This document shows, in pieces, positions 25,483 to 39,364 of a stretch of DNA of 46,416 nt. Made by a program: the position numbers and the translations under genes. The stretch is from positions 1 through 46,416 of the IMG/VR virus record IMGVR_UViG_3300020042_004802. One strand, given 5' to 3'. Numbering within the stretch: position 1 is the stretch's first letter; the number at the start of each line of letters is the position of its first letter. The stretch comes from a virus. Its lineage: Duplodnaviria > Caudoviricetes. The notes under the pieces are model-generated. The model ran no database searches. It was not told where the DNA came from and saw only the letters and a list, made by a program, of their open reading frames with translations.

Positions 25483-25575
25483 TAGTCAGAATGGGAATCG
25501 AACCCACACCTCATCTCTTTCGAGTGCTCTAATCCTCAAGGGTCAATTTCCTTATGACCTTTAAGCTACCTGACT
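25483..25575 (-). ncRNA. tRNA-like element lacking an anticodon loop
   Basis: Acceptor AGTCAGG/TCTGACT+A; T arm GTGGG-TTCGATT-CCCAT; D stem GCTT/GAGC with inserted hairpin GGTCA/TGACC; anticodon arm reduced to CTC-GAAA-GAG. Confidence 0.7.
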
Positions 25576-25685: not shown

Positions 25686-25717
25686 CAAAGATAGGTAAAC
25701 GTTTTTGTTAAGTCAAG
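25686..25717 (-). promoter_or_regulatory. Bacteroidota sigma70 promoter upstream of the tRNA-like element
   Basis: Minus strand CTTG-20 nt-TATCTTTG. Confidence 0.7.
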
Positions 25718-35841: not shown

Positions 35842-36104
35842 TATTTTTGCTCGGTTAGAATGTTGCTCGTGGAATTTGTCGTTGCCACGGTGATTTGATT
35901 CTTGGTGGCGTAGCGTACTACCCAATCCATTTGCTTCTCGGAAATTTCACCCATCCAAAAAAAGATGTCCATAATATTTCTGATAGCGGGCGCTTCTTTA
36001 TCGCCAGTCTTGGCGTACATACGTTCCTTGCAAAAGTCTCTGATTGCACTTGCGTAGCGTGAGCGCAATTCATTGTTGGTTTCTAAAATTTCTCTGACAT
36101 TCAT
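35841..36104 (-). CDS. Early hypothetical protein
   Basis: Start at MNVREIL, 7 nt after pseudoknot copy 1. Confidence 0.6.
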   Translation of the reverse strand: MNVREILETNNELRSRYASAIRDFCKERMYAKTGDKEAPAIRNIMDIFFWMGEISEKQMDWVVRYATKNQITVATTNSTSNILTEQK

Positions 36105-36111
36105 AAGATTA

Positions 36112-36137
36112 TGCGGTTGACCTATACACCGCAAGGT
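36112..36137 (-). ncRNA. Pre-start pseudoknot motif, copy 1
   Basis: ACCT-TGCGGT-GTAT-AGGT-CA-ACCGCA. Confidence 0.7.
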
Positions 36138-36143
36138 GATATG

Positions 36144-36344
36144 TTAATTATTTTTTATGTTTTCTATTTGACTCATTAAATACTCGATTGCTTGGTAGTT
36201 AATCTCATCCTCTGATAATTCAAAGGCGCGACCCGATAGCATTTCTATGTACAATTTGCCCCTCACTATGGAGGTAATAAACCCATTTTCTTGGGCGATT
36301 AAGTCTAGATTTTTTTGTGCGTAACGCAATGTTGAAAGTTCCAT
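36144..36344 (-). CDS. Early hypothetical protein
   Basis: 66 aa, preceded by pseudoknot copy 2. Confidence 0.6.
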   Translation of the reverse strand: MELSTLRYAQKNLDLIAQENGFITSIVRGKLYIEMLSGRAFELSEDEINYQAIEYLMSQIENIKNN

Positions 36345-36355
36345 AAGATTTGTTA

Positions 36356-36379
36356 TCGGTTACCTATACACCGAAAGGT
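36356..36379 (-). ncRNA. Pre-start pseudoknot motif, copy 2
   Basis: ACCT-T-TCGGT-GTAT-AGGT-A-ACCGA. Confidence 0.7.
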
Positions 36380-36388
36380 TATATGTTA

Positions 36389-36664
36389 TTAGTTATTTAA
36401 TGACTCTTTGTAAGCATTGAATATGGCTAAAAACTCAGGTAGACAATCCTTTGCCGAACGACCTTTCAGTCCGTAGTACCTTTTGATGTCCGTAAATTTG
36501 ATGCCTCTACAAGTCATCCCCGAAGCCATAATTCCTAGGTTAAACTTGTGAACCGCTAACTGATATGCGAAATAGTCTATCTTACCATTTGCTGAAGATA
36601 CACTTGGTGTGCGTAAAGCGCCTAATCTAGCTTGCTCAACTGCTTGTTCGAATTGTGATTTCAT
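36389..36664 (-). CDS. Early hypothetical protein
   Basis: 91 aa, preceded by pseudoknot copy 3. Confidence 0.65.
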   Translation of the reverse strand: MKSQFEQAVEQARLGALRTPSVSSANGKIDYFAYQLAVHKFNLGIMASGMTCRGIKFTDIKRYYGLKGRSAKDCLPEFLAIFNAYKESLNN

Positions 36665-36677
36665 AATAGATAATATA

Positions 36678-36701
36678 ACGATTGCCTATACATCGTGAGG
36701 T
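36678..36701 (-). ncRNA. Pre-start pseudoknot motif, copy 3
   Basis: ACCT-C-ACGAT-GTAT-AGGC-A-ATCGT, with compensatory changes in stem 2. Confidence 0.7.
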
Positions 36702-36722
36702 CAAAATGCTGATAGTGGAATT

Positions 36723-36845
36723 TTATAGTAATGGTAATAAGAATGCACATAGGGATGCGATTACTAATGCCGTGATTAATTCGCCTTTGTCTTGCGCCGC
36801 CTCTTCTCCTAGGAAGAATACAACTATCTTATTGAATGTCTTCAT
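36723..36845 (-). CDS. Small membrane peptide (40 aa, MKTFNKIVVFFLGEEAAQDKGELITALVIASLCAFLLPLL), not in ORF track
   Basis: Translated by hand; preceded by pseudoknot copy 4. Confidence 0.6.
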   Translation of the reverse strand: MKTFNKIVVFFLGEEAAQDKGELITALVIASLCAFLLPLL

Positions 36846-36853
36846 TGTAATAA

Positions 36854-36878
36854 GCGGTTGACCTATACACCGCAAGGT
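36854..36878 (-). ncRNA. Pre-start pseudoknot motif, copy 4
   Basis: ACCT-T-GCGGT-GTAT-AGGT-CA-ACCGC. Confidence 0.7.
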
Positions 36879-36900
36879 TGTTGTGAGATTAGATAATATA

Positions 36901-37833
36901 TTAAGAGGCTAAGATTACATCAAACAAGCGCTCATCAATAGTCTTTTGTTGGTCGAAAGTCTTTTGCAACTTGTTATGTAACAACTCGTTGAAAGCATTG
37001 TATACTATCCACTTGTTAGGCTTAGTATTTAACACCTTGGTCTCGCGTTGTACCACATCTAAGATAAAGCGAGCGTTCAAGCTAGGTGCGGGATTCTTAT
37101 CAGATGATTCGTACTTGATAAGGCTTAACTTCTTATTAACGTCTTGAATGTACTTCTCTACGTTTAAGACACGCGCCTCAGCTAGGATGTCGAACTTCTT
37201 CTTAAGGCTAAAGAATTCGTTATCCATAAAGTTTTCTACTAGTTCGCCTAGCTTAGGTAGTACAATCTCAGCAATTGACCCCGTGTGCTTAACGCTAAAT
37301 CCAATCTCTGTTTGTGCGATACATAAACCATTGTCACATACCTTGCGATACATACCGAATGACCCACTAGTCTTGTTAGACCCATCGTAGCTATTAGTAA
37401 ATCGTAGCATAGGGAATAGGATATCTTGGTCACCCTTAACCTCAATCTTGTAACGGTCATCCGCTAGGACATAGTCAACTGCAAAGGAGCGATTGTCGCG
37501 ATTGATAGAGCGTGACTTGTAGTAGATGTCCGCATCTATTAGCTTGCGCTCGGCTTCTAGGAAGAACACCTCATTAGGTAGGTGACCGTATGATTTAGAT
37601 ACCACATTAACTAGTGTGCCTCCGCAAATGATACCTTGCTCTAGACCCTTTCTTGTAGGCATATCTAATAGGTCAGACATTTGTACAATTTTGTTGTCAA
37701 CAAATACGTCATCTTGACGCGATTTTGCTAGTAAGTCATCTACTGACTTGGTAGTTCTGAAGTTCATTTTGCCATTGCCATTAGAGTTTAACAATGAATT
37801 GATTTGACGATTTGCTGTTTTTGAAACGTTCAT
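36901..37833 (-). CDS. DUF932/DUF945-like early protein
   Basis: VVSKSYGHLPN...FTNSYDGS...GMYRKVCDNGL...KHT...WIVYNAFNE pattern. Confidence 0.8.
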   Translation of the reverse strand: MNVSKTANRQINSLLNSNGNGKMNFRTTKSVDDLLAKSRQDDVFVDNKIVQMSDLLDMPTRKGLEQGIICGGTLVNVVSKSYGHLPNEVFFLEAERKLIDADIYYKSRSINRDNRSFAVDYVLADDRYKIEVKGDQDILFPMLRFTNSYDGSNKTSGSFGMYRKVCDNGLCIAQTEIGFSVKHTGSIAEIVLPKLGELVENFMDNEFFSLKKKFDILAEARVLNVEKYIQDVNKKLSLIKYESSDKNPAPSLNARFILDVVQRETKVLNTKPNKWIVYNAFNELLHNKLQKTFDQQKTIDERLFDVILAS

Positions 37834-37844
37834 AATAGTGTGTG

Positions 37845-37869
37845 TTCGGTTACCTAGCCACCGAAAGGA
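37845..37869 (-). ncRNA. Pre-start pseudoknot motif, copy 5
   Basis: TCCT-TTCGGT-GGCT-AGG-TA-ACCGAA. Confidence 0.65.
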
Positions 37870-37878
37870 TAAGTTTTT

Positions 37879-37928
37879 GTGTGAGACCCCCGAAGGGGTT
37901 TCGGCTATTCAAGCCTCATCAGTCACAC
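37879..37928 (-). ncRNA. Type I hammerhead ribozyme
   Basis: GTGTGA-CTGATGA-GGCT-TGAAT-AGCC-GAA-ACCCC-TTCG-GGGGT-C-TCACAC: complete catalytic core and three perfect stems; predicted cut after GUC, between 37885 and 37884. Confidence 0.92.
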
Positions 37929-37938
37929 TATATTAATA

Positions 37939-38172
37939 TTATTCTACTATTCTATAGAATTCTCTTTGCTTCATCAATGCCTTACCAAATGATGAATTGA
38001 CCGAATGGAATGATATTAAAACTTTACTTTGAGGATAGGCACATAGTAAAGGATTGTTTCCTTGCCAATAGATTTTATTATCCATACAATTAAACTTCTC
38101 GGCATAAGCGTGTAATGCTAGATACTTTGAACTAGCTTCGATAACGTGTAGGTTGTTTGTTACAAATTTCAT
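37939..38172 (-). CDS. First early hypothetical protein
   Basis: 77 aa, between the tRNA-like element and the hammerhead. Confidence 0.55.
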   Translation of the reverse strand: MKFVTNNLHVIEASSKYLALHAYAEKFNCMDNKIYWQGNNPLLCAYPQSKVLISFHSVNSSFGKALMKQREFYRIVE

Positions 38173-38189
38173 AATATAGTTGTTTAAGT

Positions 38190-38260
38190 TGGCGATTGGT
38201 AAGGGATTCGAACCCTACTCACACGGAACTAAGTCTTAGTGTGGTGACCTGCAACCAATC
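38190..38260 (-). ncRNA. Aberrant tRNA-like element with encoded CCA
   Basis: Acceptor GATTGGT/ACCAATC+G+CCA; T arm AGGG-TTCGAAT-CCCT; no recognisable D arm; central stem CACAC/GTGTG with a 14-nt loop. Confidence 0.7.
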
Positions 38261-38395
38261 GGTATGCGCAATCTTCGATGAGTATTAGCGATTTGCCTAG
38301 GCTATCCTTGGGCTATTTACCGACACTTTACTGCAACCTATGACCCTTAGGTGGTGGGGATTTTTTAACCCGCTTGACTGCGGATGATACTCAAG

Positions 38396-38408
38396 ATTTC
38401 AAAGAACA
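38396..38408 (-). promoter_or_regulatory. BoxA-like antitermination element
   Basis: Minus strand TGTTCTTTGAAAT, ~150 nt downstream of the early promoter. Confidence 0.5.
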
Positions 38409-38560
38409 TTTTAAGCATACTTTCGTCCGTTCGGTAGGGGCTATATGACAAACCTAGGTAGCTAGGTACAAGTACTTATGTTTAGTGTCTAGCCCGTTCT
38501 TACTGAGCCTATCCTTTGCACCACTATGGCAGTGGCATCCGTTTGTCTCGTTCGACATTA

Positions 38561-38591
38561 CAAAGGTATACTAAACTTTTAGCTTTACAAA
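38561..38591 (-). promoter_or_regulatory. Major early promoter (Bacteroidota sigma70)
   Basis: Minus strand TTTG-19 nt-TACCTTTG, consensus match at the head of the minus-strand gene block. Confidence 0.85.
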
Positions 38592-38734
38592 TTATCTAAT
38601 CTGTAATAACCTAGAAACACGACGAAATGGCGATATGTGTCGACGAAATCCCCAATTGTGTCGACGAACAGACCATATTTAGCGATATGTATCAAATTTT
38701 ACCCTTATCTAATCCTTGACATATACTGCAACCG

Positions 38735-38812
38735 AGCGCGCGCGTCACGTCACGCGTACACGCACACGCATACACACACGCGTAGGCGCACGTCACACGC
38801 GTACACGCGTAT
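38735..38812. repeat. Alternating purine-pyrimidine tract (CG/CA/CACGCGTA units)
   Basis: GCGCGCGCGTCACGTCACGCGTACACGCACACGCATACACACACGCGTAGGCGCACGTCACACGCGTACACGCGTATA. Confidence 0.75.
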
Positions 38813-39364
38813 AGCATTTTTTTTGACATCAAAATTACCCCGATTTTGCGTTTAAGGCATTATCTCGCATAGGGCTTATAGAATGGACATTTAAACAAGA
38901 AAATGTCTTAAATCAAAGATTTGACCCCTTAAAACGAATGCTAGTAAAATGGGGTGTTTGTTCTTGGGGGTGATGTGTGGCGGATAATTCCCTTAGGACA
39001 GATACGCCCTTCATTTAATCCTTTGGGCATATATTCCCCTACATTGTTTCCCTTTAGTGCAACACTATTGCATTTATTCCTTAGGGCAGATGACAATCGG
39101 AAAGATAATACCGATGACATAGGACATTGTACCAATGGGATACATTGGAAATTGTTTATTGTACCACATATATACATTGACCCGATTTTTGGATTTCGGA
39201 TTTGGGAAAGTGACCCCACCCCATCAGCAAAAGTCGTTTGTCGTTCTGCGTTGCGACCCGCTGTATAATATATATAACCATAAACCGACAACTACGCGGT
39301 GCAAAAATTGACAATATGATTATATCTATCTATCTTTACCTTTACAAACCAAACAAACATTTTA

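Follow-up and report, generated by a model that had tools for sequence, protein, structure and literature searches.

Why would a phage place a structured RNA element 5' of one early gene after another? The question is raised by a freshwater phage in which each of the first six minus-strand early genes (ORF1–6) is preceded by such an element. The window, that is, the whole 46,416-nucleotide stretch of DNA analyzed here, had been described in a first-pass annotation as carrying a promoter, a leader with a BoxA-like site, a tRNA-like element, ORF1, a hammerhead ribozyme, and pseudoknot-preceded ORF2–6, and all of these were found where they had been placed (Table 1). The promoter string (TTTG, 19 nt, and TACCTTTG) has four exact matches in the genome, including that of the early operon, all on the minus strand. 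The −33/−7 arrangement is the promoter consensus of Bacteroidetes, and by this consensus we take the early operon promoter to be of the Bacteroidota type. It was absent from the output of a generic sigma-70 scan, and the sigma-70 and terminator scan of the window gave nothing informative. The −7 box is at a comparable place in most of the leader-bearing relatives.

Table 1 Features of the early operon, in order of transcription
Feature	Position	Strand	Remarks
Promoter, −33/−7 type	38561..38591	-	TTTG + 19 nt + TACCTTTG
Leader module 1, 5' hairpin and multi-helix RNA	38410..38536	-	covariation; not in Rfam
boxA	38397..38407	-	same 11-mer as a boxA-type site located 150 nt upstream of 16S rRNA in a Bacteroidota genome
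PK-B, second small H-type pseudoknot	38336..38358	-	both stems covary
tRNA-like element (mimic)	38190..38260	-	7-bp acceptor stem, G discriminator, CCA, T-arm
ORF1, 77 aa	37939..38172	-	no family; ATG at 38172
Type I hammerhead ribozyme fold	37879..37928	-	complete core; predicted cut between 37885 and 37884
PK-A copy 1	37846..37868	-	16 nt after predicted hammerhead cut; 12 nt before ORF2
ORF2, 310 aa, DUF932 protein	36901..37833	-	PF06067 E 1e-13; phrog_21518; Atlas DUF932
PK-A copy 2	36854..36877	-	8 nt before ORF3
ORF3, 40 aa, conserved small protein	36723..36845	-	homologues in 12/30 clade regions
PK-A copy 3, compensated stem 2	36678..36700	-	13 nt before ORF4
ORF4, 91 aa	36389..36664	-	no family; 2/30 clade regions
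PK-A copy 4	36356..36378	-	11 nt before ORF5
ORF5, 66 aa	36144..36344	-	no family; 5/30 clade regions
PK-A copy 5	36113..36136	-	8 nt before ORF6
ORF6, 87 aa	35841..36104	-	no family

The homologues of ORF1 (36–38%) in L356 and L358 also lie between a mimic and a hammerhead. In many relatives, an ArdC-type protein takes the place of the DUF932 protein in the early region. The DUF932 gene is the sole gene that Phage 6H shares with the window, and no PK-A was found within the 7.2 kb of Phage 6H examined. The genes after ORF6 are mostly overlapping or tightly packed and are without PK-A.

The leader extends over ~295 nt from the inferred transcription start to the tRNA mimic. Its earlier description as a structured leader of ~300 nt holds for the length and for the helices of module 1, which covary, but the folding of the leader is not more stable than that of shuffled sequences (z +0.72, +0.92, and −0.48). 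In module 1, 6 of the 25 consensus pairs are changed on both sides among seven sequences, a count that is an underestimate, with two rows misregistered by MAFFT. Base pairs of its inner hairpin are swapped among relatives. Searches with an exact 19-mer and with a second pattern of the module hit one viral contig and five metagenome contigs, respectively. The boxA of this untranslated leader matches the rrn boxA of the inferred host group, Bacteroidota, and a one-base variant of it sits in the 16S–23S spacer of a Bacteroidota genome. Of 17 leaders, 11 have a boxA-like site, against an expectation of 0.007 per 450 nt, and six have none. The likeness to an rRNA operon leader includes the same boxA 11-mer and a long stretch of untranslated leader that runs up to a tRNA-shaped RNA; in contrast, the phage leader drives small protein genes, boxA is not universal in it, and a role of Nus factors is presumed. 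PK-B, found in eight copies over 27 regions (none in shuffles, with a descriptor that demanded pairing), occurs once in the genome of the window. Its stems are CCC/GGG and GCC/GGC, with five stem-2 types among the eight copies, and it lies upstream of the mimic by 2 nt in four relatives and by 75 nt in the window. PK-B was not in the element list of the first-pass annotation.

The CCA-ending tRNA-like element does end 17 nt before the first ATG, as had been claimed. With no D-stem and no 7-nt anticodon loop, it does not qualify as a tRNA gene; the acceptor stem and a T-arm with T-loop are present, the first T-stem pair being U–U in the window. Neither ARAGORN nor Rfam (RF00005) called it, and single-sequence folding gives no support (z −0.11 and +0.08). 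In the comparison of five homologues, 9 of 21 consensus pairs are changed on both sides. The 3' ends of 16 leader mimics are CCA (six), CUA (eight), and CAA (two). A D-loop-like GG occurs early in the connector of 25 of 30 mimics, and four of the five mimics without it also have a non-standard T-loop. Up to seven mimics are found at a single locus (L022). Among the 14 internal mimics, five share sequence with the upstream stop codon, so that a 5' cut by RNase P would break that stop. Four Bacteroidota genomes, which are stand-ins and not the host of the phage, were searched for nucleases. RNase Z and RNase E/G gave matches in all four (over the cut-off in two and three, respectively), and RNase J was over the cut-off in none.

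The hammerhead has a complete core (CUGANGA, GAAA, and UH with A15.1–U16.1) surrounded by three stems, stem I being open, and its MFE and centroid structures are the same. None of 200 shuffles was equally stable (z −3.27). Its score of 23.4 bits is below the cut-off of 56.3 for RAGATH-1-hammerhead (RF03152), and those of hammerheads in relatives (31.4 and 31.6 bits) are below the cut-off of 34 for RF00163. Across eight clade copies, the stems vary in compensated form, and the core is intact in all eight, as the search itself required. PK-A lies 10–16 nt downstream of seven of the eight hammerheads. Being within 16 nt of them, PK-A appears to be tied to the downstream message. It also follows 10 of the 30 mimics, at 4–31 nt. 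The co-occurrence in relatives that the first-pass annotation anticipated is present. The RNA data covered four runs from three studies, as assembled contigs only, with word shares of 0.05–0.18. A contig of run X1 (37842–38044) runs across the hammerhead cut site, extending 43 nt past it on its shorter side, although library DNA is a possible source. The contigs leave the leader and mimic uncovered, which carries no evidential weight.

PK-A is present in exactly five copies in the genome of the window, none beyond those before ORF2–6. An extra call inside ORF6 under a relaxed descriptor was dropped by the strict one. The element is 23–24 nt long with 8–9 bp and loops of 1, 3–4, and 1–3 nt; the bases CCU, UG, and AGG are invariant, and UUA or UCA predominates in the last loop. 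When stem 2 was left free in the search, it was fully paired in 47 of 64 distinct contexts, compared with a mean of 16.3 and a maximum of 25 in shuffles; this covariation test drew on 80 of at least 119 loci. Stem 1 is CCT/AGG in 29 of 29 cases and is never changed on both sides. Searches for its variants gave zero and two matches, the latter a single wobble context. With stem 1 freed, 51 of 80 matches lacked AGG and were mostly unrelated, and no convincing compensated member was among them. The proposal of the same small pseudoknot before five ORFs is borne out by the five copies and by the covariation of stem 2, but not by stem 1. Because stem 1 is invariant, the pseudoknot is unproven, and PK-A may be a hairpin with conserved flanks.

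An AUG comes 7–14 nt after 84 of the 87 distinct clade copies of PK-A, and after 20 of the 21 that have no stop codon in the preceding 40 nt. Over all loci, AUG is 6–14 nt downstream in 119 of 195 (5.8% for random positions). In the 32 copies with an SD-like tract, AUG is mostly more distant and PK-A is upstream of the SD. Beyond the clade there are 48 non-SD copies without a link to a start, of which 28 lie within 20 nt after a stop. Together with the 133 of 195 copies located ≤25 nt after a stop and a cultured-phage copy downstream of a methyltransferase gene and without an ATG in the 22 nt after it, these would suit a terminator or 3'-end cap for the upstream gene. Such a function is nevertheless very unlikely, since a U-rich tail is found in 10 of the 87 clade copies, 21 copies have no stop within 40 nt, and U tails are no more common in the non-start-linked copies (17 of 48 against 38 of 119). 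Moreover, copy 1 lies beyond the hammerhead cut, and up to 13 copies occur in one 6-kb operon.

PK-A is found in the same kind of intergenic slot as hammerheads and mimics. This sharing, the location of a PK-A 6 nt after tmRNA in L016, and the invariant bases are what could be expected of a cleavage element, either a self-cleaving ribozyme of exceptionally small size or a site for a dedicated nuclease. It would be redundant after seven of the eight hammerheads, and weak evidence against it comes from contigs of two studies that run through copies 3 and 4. To our knowledge, natural self-cleaving ribozymes are all far larger than 23–24 nt, and cleavage by or at PK-A is scarcely credible. Other candidates were rejected. 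An HDV-like or theta ribozyme does not fit the two helices of PK-A, which has no invariant C, no nested double pseudoknot with a catalytic C in J4/2, and no Rfam match. A DNA promoter is a misfit to the Bacteroidetes consensus and to the sense-strand G–U-type changes.

Among 22 relatives, 12 retain the leader and mimic, and nine have zero elements in the region examined, including three close ones (86–91% marker protein identity). The promoter is repeated internally in some of the element-free relatives. The number of PK-A in the first 7 kb ranges from 0 to 13. L392 shares a nearly identical leader and mimic, after which come PK-A and another gene. A given gene can stand behind differing elements, and PK-A precedes 1 of 12 ORF3 orthologues and 3 of 10 ORF6 orthologues. 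The RNA parts of the operon are modular, not fixed, and are optional: in close relatives, some of the same genes are expressed in their absence. The expectation that related phages keep the element order while the ORFs vary was correct for the co-occurring elements and changing genes, but the order mimic–ORF1–hammerhead–PK is kept in only two of the 22. This variability of order and number, the element-free relatives, the genes behind different elements, and the RNA-library contig across the hammerhead site could all be explained if the elements were independent optional cassettes, the repeats persisting mainly as recombination junctions for gene swapping (compare PeSL of T4-type phages) and the mimic being an uncut stable fold or decoy. 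We consider this rather improbable; the identity needed for recombination is eroded by compensatory change, the AUG spacing and the cutter-to-PK-A coupling are constant, and all eight hammerhead cores are intact (with the above proviso on the search).

Here, we propose that this early operon of swappable RNA parts (boxA leader, cutter-type folds, and start-linked PK-A) may well be a cut-and-restart system, a reading held tentatively and with Bacteroidota as the inferred host. In the first step, boxA would load host Nus factors, and these would take RNA polymerase across the untranslated leader in the way known from rRNA operons. In the second step, a host tRNA nuclease would cut the mimic, RNase Z at the 3' side being likelier than RNase P, and the hammerhead would cut itself. 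Either cut would give the upstream piece a structured 3' end formed by the mimic or the hammerhead itself, and PK-B might guard this end further. In the third step, PK-A opens each downstream piece or cistron; its observed place, 8–13 nt before AUG, is that of an SD helix, and there it would act as a landing site for the ribosome or bS1 and secondarily slow RNase E/G. In the fourth step, which is seen as a pattern, genes and elements are reshuffled among relatives, probably via recombination at repeats. Several facts oppose this cut-and-restart scheme: the nine element-free relatives, the single ORF3 orthologue with PK-A, the 48 copies outside the clade that are not start-linked but often follow a stop, the X1 contig, the six leaders without boxA, and the unchanging stem 1. 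In addition, stem 2 of PK-A covers the A-12/A-13 region when it ends 8–11 nt before AUG, whereas initiation in Bacteroidia is favored by low structure and adenines at −12/−13 (PMC13000457). A more sweeping version is doubtful: Bacteroidota phages would have an uncatalogued RNA toolkit and use it to run the first operon in the manner of a host rRNA operon. Antitermination would come from boxA, minimal tRNA mimics and hammerheads would be interchangeable cutters, PK-B would protect the 3' ends of upstream pieces, and the 24-nt PK-A would dock on an SD-blind ribosome in place of Shine–Dalgarno pairing, which would give phage anti-defence genes priority in translation.

Other readings of PK-A compete with the third step. 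The Escherichia coli rpsO leader pseudoknot is a single-gene autoregulatory operator. PK-A resembles it and the T4 gene 32 leader (PMC10690425, as far as its available part describes the latter) in being a small pseudoknot shortly before a start codon, and might be a translational operator that covers −9 to −13 and, by itself or with a protein bound to it, reduces or blocks initiation. The overlap with the A-12/A-13 determinants and the preference for low structure (PMC13000457) agree with this, and the invariant bases suggest a binding surface. Unlike these operators, PK-A stands before many unrelated genes and has loops of only a few nucleotides; no shared candidate repressor was seen across the unrelated phages, microviruses, and chromosomes with PK-A, and some copies precede genes expected to be needed at once, e.g., ArdC in L365 and L030, which makes an operator improbable. 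Alternatively, PK-A may serve chiefly against decay, its compact coaxial fold obstructing RNase E/G that scans from the cut 5' end and so shielding each cistron, the AUG spacing being the nearest place that spares the ribosome site. Its location after processing sites, and upstream of the SD in SD-type contexts, would fit, as would the RNase E/G matches in all four genomes. This role is unlikely, because PK-A follows seven of the eight hammerheads, whose products carry 5'-OH. Such products should not start 5'-monophosphate-dependent scanning. H-type pseudoknots do impede RNase E scanning, but protection rises with coaxial length, and even an 11-bp pseudoknot was a modest obstacle in the data available from that study (PMC9943677), compared with 8–9 bp in PK-A. 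An exonuclease block is also unlikely, as RNase J was over the cut-off in none of the four genomes.

tRNA punctuation is known from mitochondria and from t-elements. As there, and as in tRNA-like processing signals, a tRNA-shaped fold lies at a transcript boundary, beside or replacing a ribozyme; here the mimics are minimal (acceptor and T-arm), precede protein genes, mostly lack CCA, are non-decoding, and have no HDV-like fold. RNase P substrates include phage C4 and M3 RNAs (PMC11143913, available part), and theta ribozymes occur at phage tRNA 3' ends (PMC10879173, likewise). Prophage hammerhead clusters flank genes, and the division of long transcripts into gene-length mRNAs was proposed as their role (Perreault et al. 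2011, PMC3088659). Both there and here, hammerheads lie between variable phage genes with anti-restriction nearby (ardA there, ArdC in relatives of the window); unlike the clusters in the accessible part of that paper, the present hammerheads alternate with tRNA mimics, seven of eight are followed by a start-linked fold, and an rrn-type boxA leader comes first. PeSL cassettes of T4-type phages, combining promoter and terminator (Arbiol et al. 2010, PMC2839356), are likewise repeated between shuffled genes in a hyperplastic early region. As far as that source could be consulted, PK-A differs in having no promoter consensus, seldom a U tail, and a set spacing to the start codon; with no promoter match at the repeats and U-rich tails in 10 of 87, it was rejected as a PeSL cassette. 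Coremin, which blocks eukaryotic Xrn1, and its Watson–Crick variant are also very small pseudoknot-like RNAs at an RNA boundary (PMC10321173). Judged by the available portion of that report, the topology differs, since PK-A lacks the 4-nt-loop hairpin, 10-nt spacer, and second hairpin of Coremin, and RNase J is not over the cut-off here; PK-A was also rejected as a Coremin xrRNA.

At the gathering cut-off, the sole Rfam match in the whole window was tRNA-like (25483–25575), and E-value scans of the early region and nine related loci gave none for PK-A, PK-B, the whole mimic, or the leader. In the literature searched, PK-A, PK-B, and the mimics were not found in print, and motif strings matched only unrelated work. 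The searchable supplements of PMC10690425 gave no match, the files that probably hold its alignments not being among them, and the 8,495 unnamed candidates of that study may include PK-A, PK-B, or the mimics. The system can be called undescribed with respect to the pseudoknots and mimics, but hammerhead-punctuated phage operons are already published (PMC3088659, available part); PK-A is a widespread phage motif that is not in Rfam. Within the clade, one and the same gene can be preceded by a hammerhead, by a mimic, or by no element; these natural swaps would reveal the reason for ribozymes in phages, which that paper, as available, leaves unanswered. The clade elements could yield expression parts for Bacteroides and Flavobacterium genetics.

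Bacteroidota ribosomes ignore Shine–Dalgarno sequences, and their start-codon choice is only partly explained. PK-A, 8–13 nt before AUG in unrelated Bacteroidota phages, is a concrete, mutable handle on that choice. It is found in unrelated phages, microviruses, and chromosomes, and 46 of 51 chromosomal matches are Bacteroidota according to the record titles. Copies are also present in two cultured Flavobacterium phages and in the cultured crAss-like phage Bc03 of Bacteroides cellulosilyticus, where PK-A lies 9 nt before an annotated gene, so that its function is testable now.

The studied region is the beginning of a leftward early operon. The window covers an entire virus record of 46,416 bases, with genes for a terminase large subunit, a GroES-like protein, a replication initiator, and a DnaB helicase. 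Because the early promoter is of the TTTG/TAnnTTTG type, the Bacteroidota consensus, the ORF start regions read from the window are A/U-rich and lack Shine–Dalgarno (SD) tracts, and the DUF932 gene (ORF2) is common to Flavobacterium phages (68% identity), the host is probably a member of Bacteroidota. A further exact match to this promoter type lies mid-genome (23714–23744, minus strand). Directly upstream of the early promoter are three 21-nt direct repeats (38620–38685), possibly operator or activator sites; comparable repeats precede the promoters of relatives without any RNA elements, including internal promoters of loci L349 and L360. An alternating purine–pyrimidine tract upstream of the promoter (38735–38815), also present in L353 and L354, caused Rfam miRNA matches that we regard as spurious.

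All the elements listed in the first-pass annotation (promoter, boxA, tRNA-like element, hammerhead, and five repeats before ORF2–6) lie where it had placed them, and the leader holds a second small pseudoknot, PK-B, in addition. The repeats, termed PK-A (a candidate H-type pseudoknot with a CCU/AGG stem 1 and a variable stem 2), are confined to the sites upstream of ORF2–6; a pattern search found none elsewhere in the genome. Rfam named no early-operon element above its cut-off. In single-sequence folding, the hammerhead was far more stable than its shuffles, and the leader (z +0.72) and the tRNA-like element, hereafter the mimic (z −0.11), folded no better than theirs, so that the structures of the latter two rest on comparison. 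Across seven sequences, 6 of the 25 pairs of leader module 1 (the 5' structured part of the leader) are compensated, and its inner hairpin swaps pairs among relatives; in five long homologues of the mimic, both partners differ in 9 of 21 pairs.

Elements of the early operon in the window
Feature	Position	Strand	Basis
Early promoter, TTTG/TAnnTTTG type	38591–38561	−	pattern match
boxA	38407–38397	−	11-mer identity with rRNA-operon site
PK-B, second small pseudoknot	38358–38336	−	
tRNA-like element, CCA end 17 nt before ORF1	38260–38190	−	sequence and comparison
Hammerhead	37928–37879	−	fold z −3.27
PK-A, five copies, 3' ends 12, 8, 13, 11, and 8 nt before ORF2–6		−	descriptor/pattern match

The boxA 11-mer also occurs 150 nt before the 16S gene in both rRNA operons of the Bacteroidota genome G001, with a one-base variant in both spacers; a second genome, G004, has looser versions. 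Among the relatives, 11 of 17 leaders carry a boxA-like site (0.007 expected per 450 nt) and six do not. Other relatives have different conserved modules in place of module 1 between promoter and mimic: one group comprises L351, L358, L359, and L361, another L356, L357, and L364, and a third L353 and L354.

Twenty-two relatives were gathered by the GroES-like gene adjoining the operon. A leader ending in a mimic was found in 12, PK-A in 13 (1 to 13 copies), and hammerheads in 5; the other nine, one of them a 1.6-kb fragment, had none of the three in the region examined, and two of these nine carry a longer-loop PK-A-like variant deeper in the operon. In 27 regions, 30 mimics, 8 hammerheads, 8 PK-B, and 84 PK-A were counted (1.8, 0, 0, and 0.4 in shuffles). 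The elements are coupled: PK-A stands 10–16 nt past the predicted cut of seven of the eight hammerheads and within 31 nt of 10 of the 30 mimics, and in four relatives the 3' end of PK-B lies 2 nt upstream of the mimic. L392 has a leader and mimic nearly as in the window, followed by PK-A and a different gene, and L022 packs seven minimal mimics and two PK-A into 6 kb. Where starts could be aligned, PK-A preceded the orthologue of ORF2 in 3/4 cases, of ORF3 in 1/12, and of ORF6 in 3/10; by this comparison, the elements before orthologous genes change between relatives. The expectation that relatives keep the element order while the genes vary was partly borne out: the elements co-occur around varying genes, but only in L356 and L358 do a mimic, an ORF1 homologue, a hammerhead, and PK-A follow one another as in the window, and there the next gene differs. 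In many relatives this region encodes an anti-restriction protein of the ArdC type (two of nine proteins scanned had a Pfam family). Judged from sequence, the elements are a real, conserved, and modular RNA set. That they are independent cassettes marking recombination junctions is distinctly unlikely.

PK-A is, by its distribution, a widespread RNA motif. The exact pattern matched 51 viral stretches and a variant pattern 51 chromosomal ones (by record titles, 46 from Bacteroidota, 4 from other phyla, and 1 unassigned), and a descriptor search of 657,551 bases yielded 302 copies, 195 of them distinct, whereas a single shuffle yielded none. When stem 2 was left free and 80 of at least 119 loci were examined, full pairing was seen in 47 of 64 distinct contexts (shuffle mean 16.3, maximum 25), using all four Watson–Crick types and G–U. 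When the 5' side of stem 1 was freed (again 80 of at least 119 loci), all 29 matches having AGG had CCT, and directed searches for stem-1 changes gave 0 and 2 matches, the two being a single U–G wobble context. Of the pseudoknot claimed earlier, the hairpin is therefore established by covariation, but the knot is only plausible since stem 1 is otherwise invariant. Five loci (L365, L390, L391, L393, and L394) carry a variant with PK-A stem 2 and GC/GC pairing in place of CCU/AGG, before a start codon and after a mimic or hammerhead; this pairing may represent a compensated stem 1 in a shifted register. Small single-stranded DNA phages (L045 and the GenBank microviruses MK496690, MK496766, and MT135418) carry PK-A as well, and at L016 2974–3029 it stands 6 nt from a tmRNA 3' end and before tRNA-Arg, in a tRNA cluster without a protein gene.

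In 31 regions of the clade (phages related to that of the window), 84 of 87 distinct PK-A copies lie 7–14 nt before an AUG, whereas the upstream stop is 3 to 86 nt away or missing; 21 copies have no stop in the preceding 40 nt, and 20 of these are spaced from the AUG in the same way. Because this spacing is fixed and the stop distance varies, PK-A in the clade goes with the downstream gene. Elsewhere it can also lie at gene ends. Over all loci, 119 of 195 copies are 6–14 nt before an AUG (5.8% at random); 32 adjoin an SD-like tract, mostly with longer spacing to the AUG, and 28 of the 48 that are neither SD- nor start-linked lie within 20 nt of a stop. The latter might suggest a terminator or 3' cap. 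However, a U-rich tail is not commoner in non-start-linked copies (17/48) than in start-linked ones (38/119) and follows only 10 of the 87 clade copies, and we consider this role highly unlikely. A translational operator is distinctly improbable, although PK-A covers the −12/−13 adenine positions named in PMC13000457.

The mimic consists of an acceptor stem and T-arm, without D-stem or anticodon loop. A D-loop-like GG is present in 25 of 30 mimics, and the T-loop, too, is non-standard in four of the other five. Of the 16 leader mimics, 6 terminate in CCA, 8 in CUA, and 2 in CAA. Because a cut at the 5' base would break the upstream stop codons that 5 of 14 internal mimics overlap, an RNase Z-type cut on the 3' side, or no cut, fits better. 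Such a 3' cut and a type I hammerhead would both leave the fold on the upstream piece. In four Bacteroidota genomes serving as stand-ins for the host, RNase Z and RNase E/G each had matches in all four (two and three over the cut-off, respectively), and RNase J was over the cut-off in none. PK-A as a decay barrier to RNase E/G is unlikely: pseudoknots hinder RNase scanning, but small ones do so little, according to PMC9943677. A second tRNA-like element (25483–25575, minus strand; Rfam tRNA, 35.1 bits; ARAGORN call without anticodon) has a long D-region insert and a short arm capped by GAAA. It is laid out like the early mimic: CUA comes next, an ATG follows 13 nt further on, and upstream, near 25690, stands a −7-type box. 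A 16-bp palindrome resembling the bacterial parS site mostly directly follows mimics (L053 2949–2964 and 3929–3944; L054, L056, L365, L390, L391, L393, L394, L023); 11 of 398 loci have it, redundant ones included, but the window does not.

RNA contigs from four freshwater metatranscriptomes (three studies) are up to 100% identical over ORF2–6 and the hammerhead. One (37842–38044) bridges the predicted hammerhead cut; copies 3 and 4 of PK-A are likewise spanned by contigs. Because contigs show neither ends nor strand and may derive from DNA, the bridging contig hints only weakly that cutting is at least incomplete.

The comparison establishes the folds (stem 1 of PK-A excepted), their spacing, coupling, and exchange between genes. 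Beyond these, we tentatively propose, at somewhat below an even chance for the whole, that Nus factors would load at boxA, that the transcript would be cut by an RNase Z-type nuclease and by the hammerhead itself, and that PK-A would act at translation initiation. The system is not wholly undescribed: PMC3088659 has already reported hammerhead clusters that lie around variable genes and cut phage transcripts, and it demonstrated the cleavage. No account of PK-A, PK-B, or these mimics was found in a literature search that covered few subscription journals and took in PMC10690425 without its alignments. Theta ribozymes located at the ends of phage tRNAs (PMC10879173), PeSL cassettes (PMC2839356), coremin (PMC10321173), and phage RNase P substrates (PMC11143913) each have one feature in common with the present elements; PK-A lacks a defining trait of the first three. 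That PK-A is itself a new cleavage element is highly unlikely. The early operon would be a variant of ribozyme-punctuated phage operons, with the start-linked PK-A as its most interesting part. PK-A is carried by three cultured phages, the crAss-like Bc03 of Bacteroides cellulosilyticus and two Flavobacterium phages, which makes it experimentally testable.
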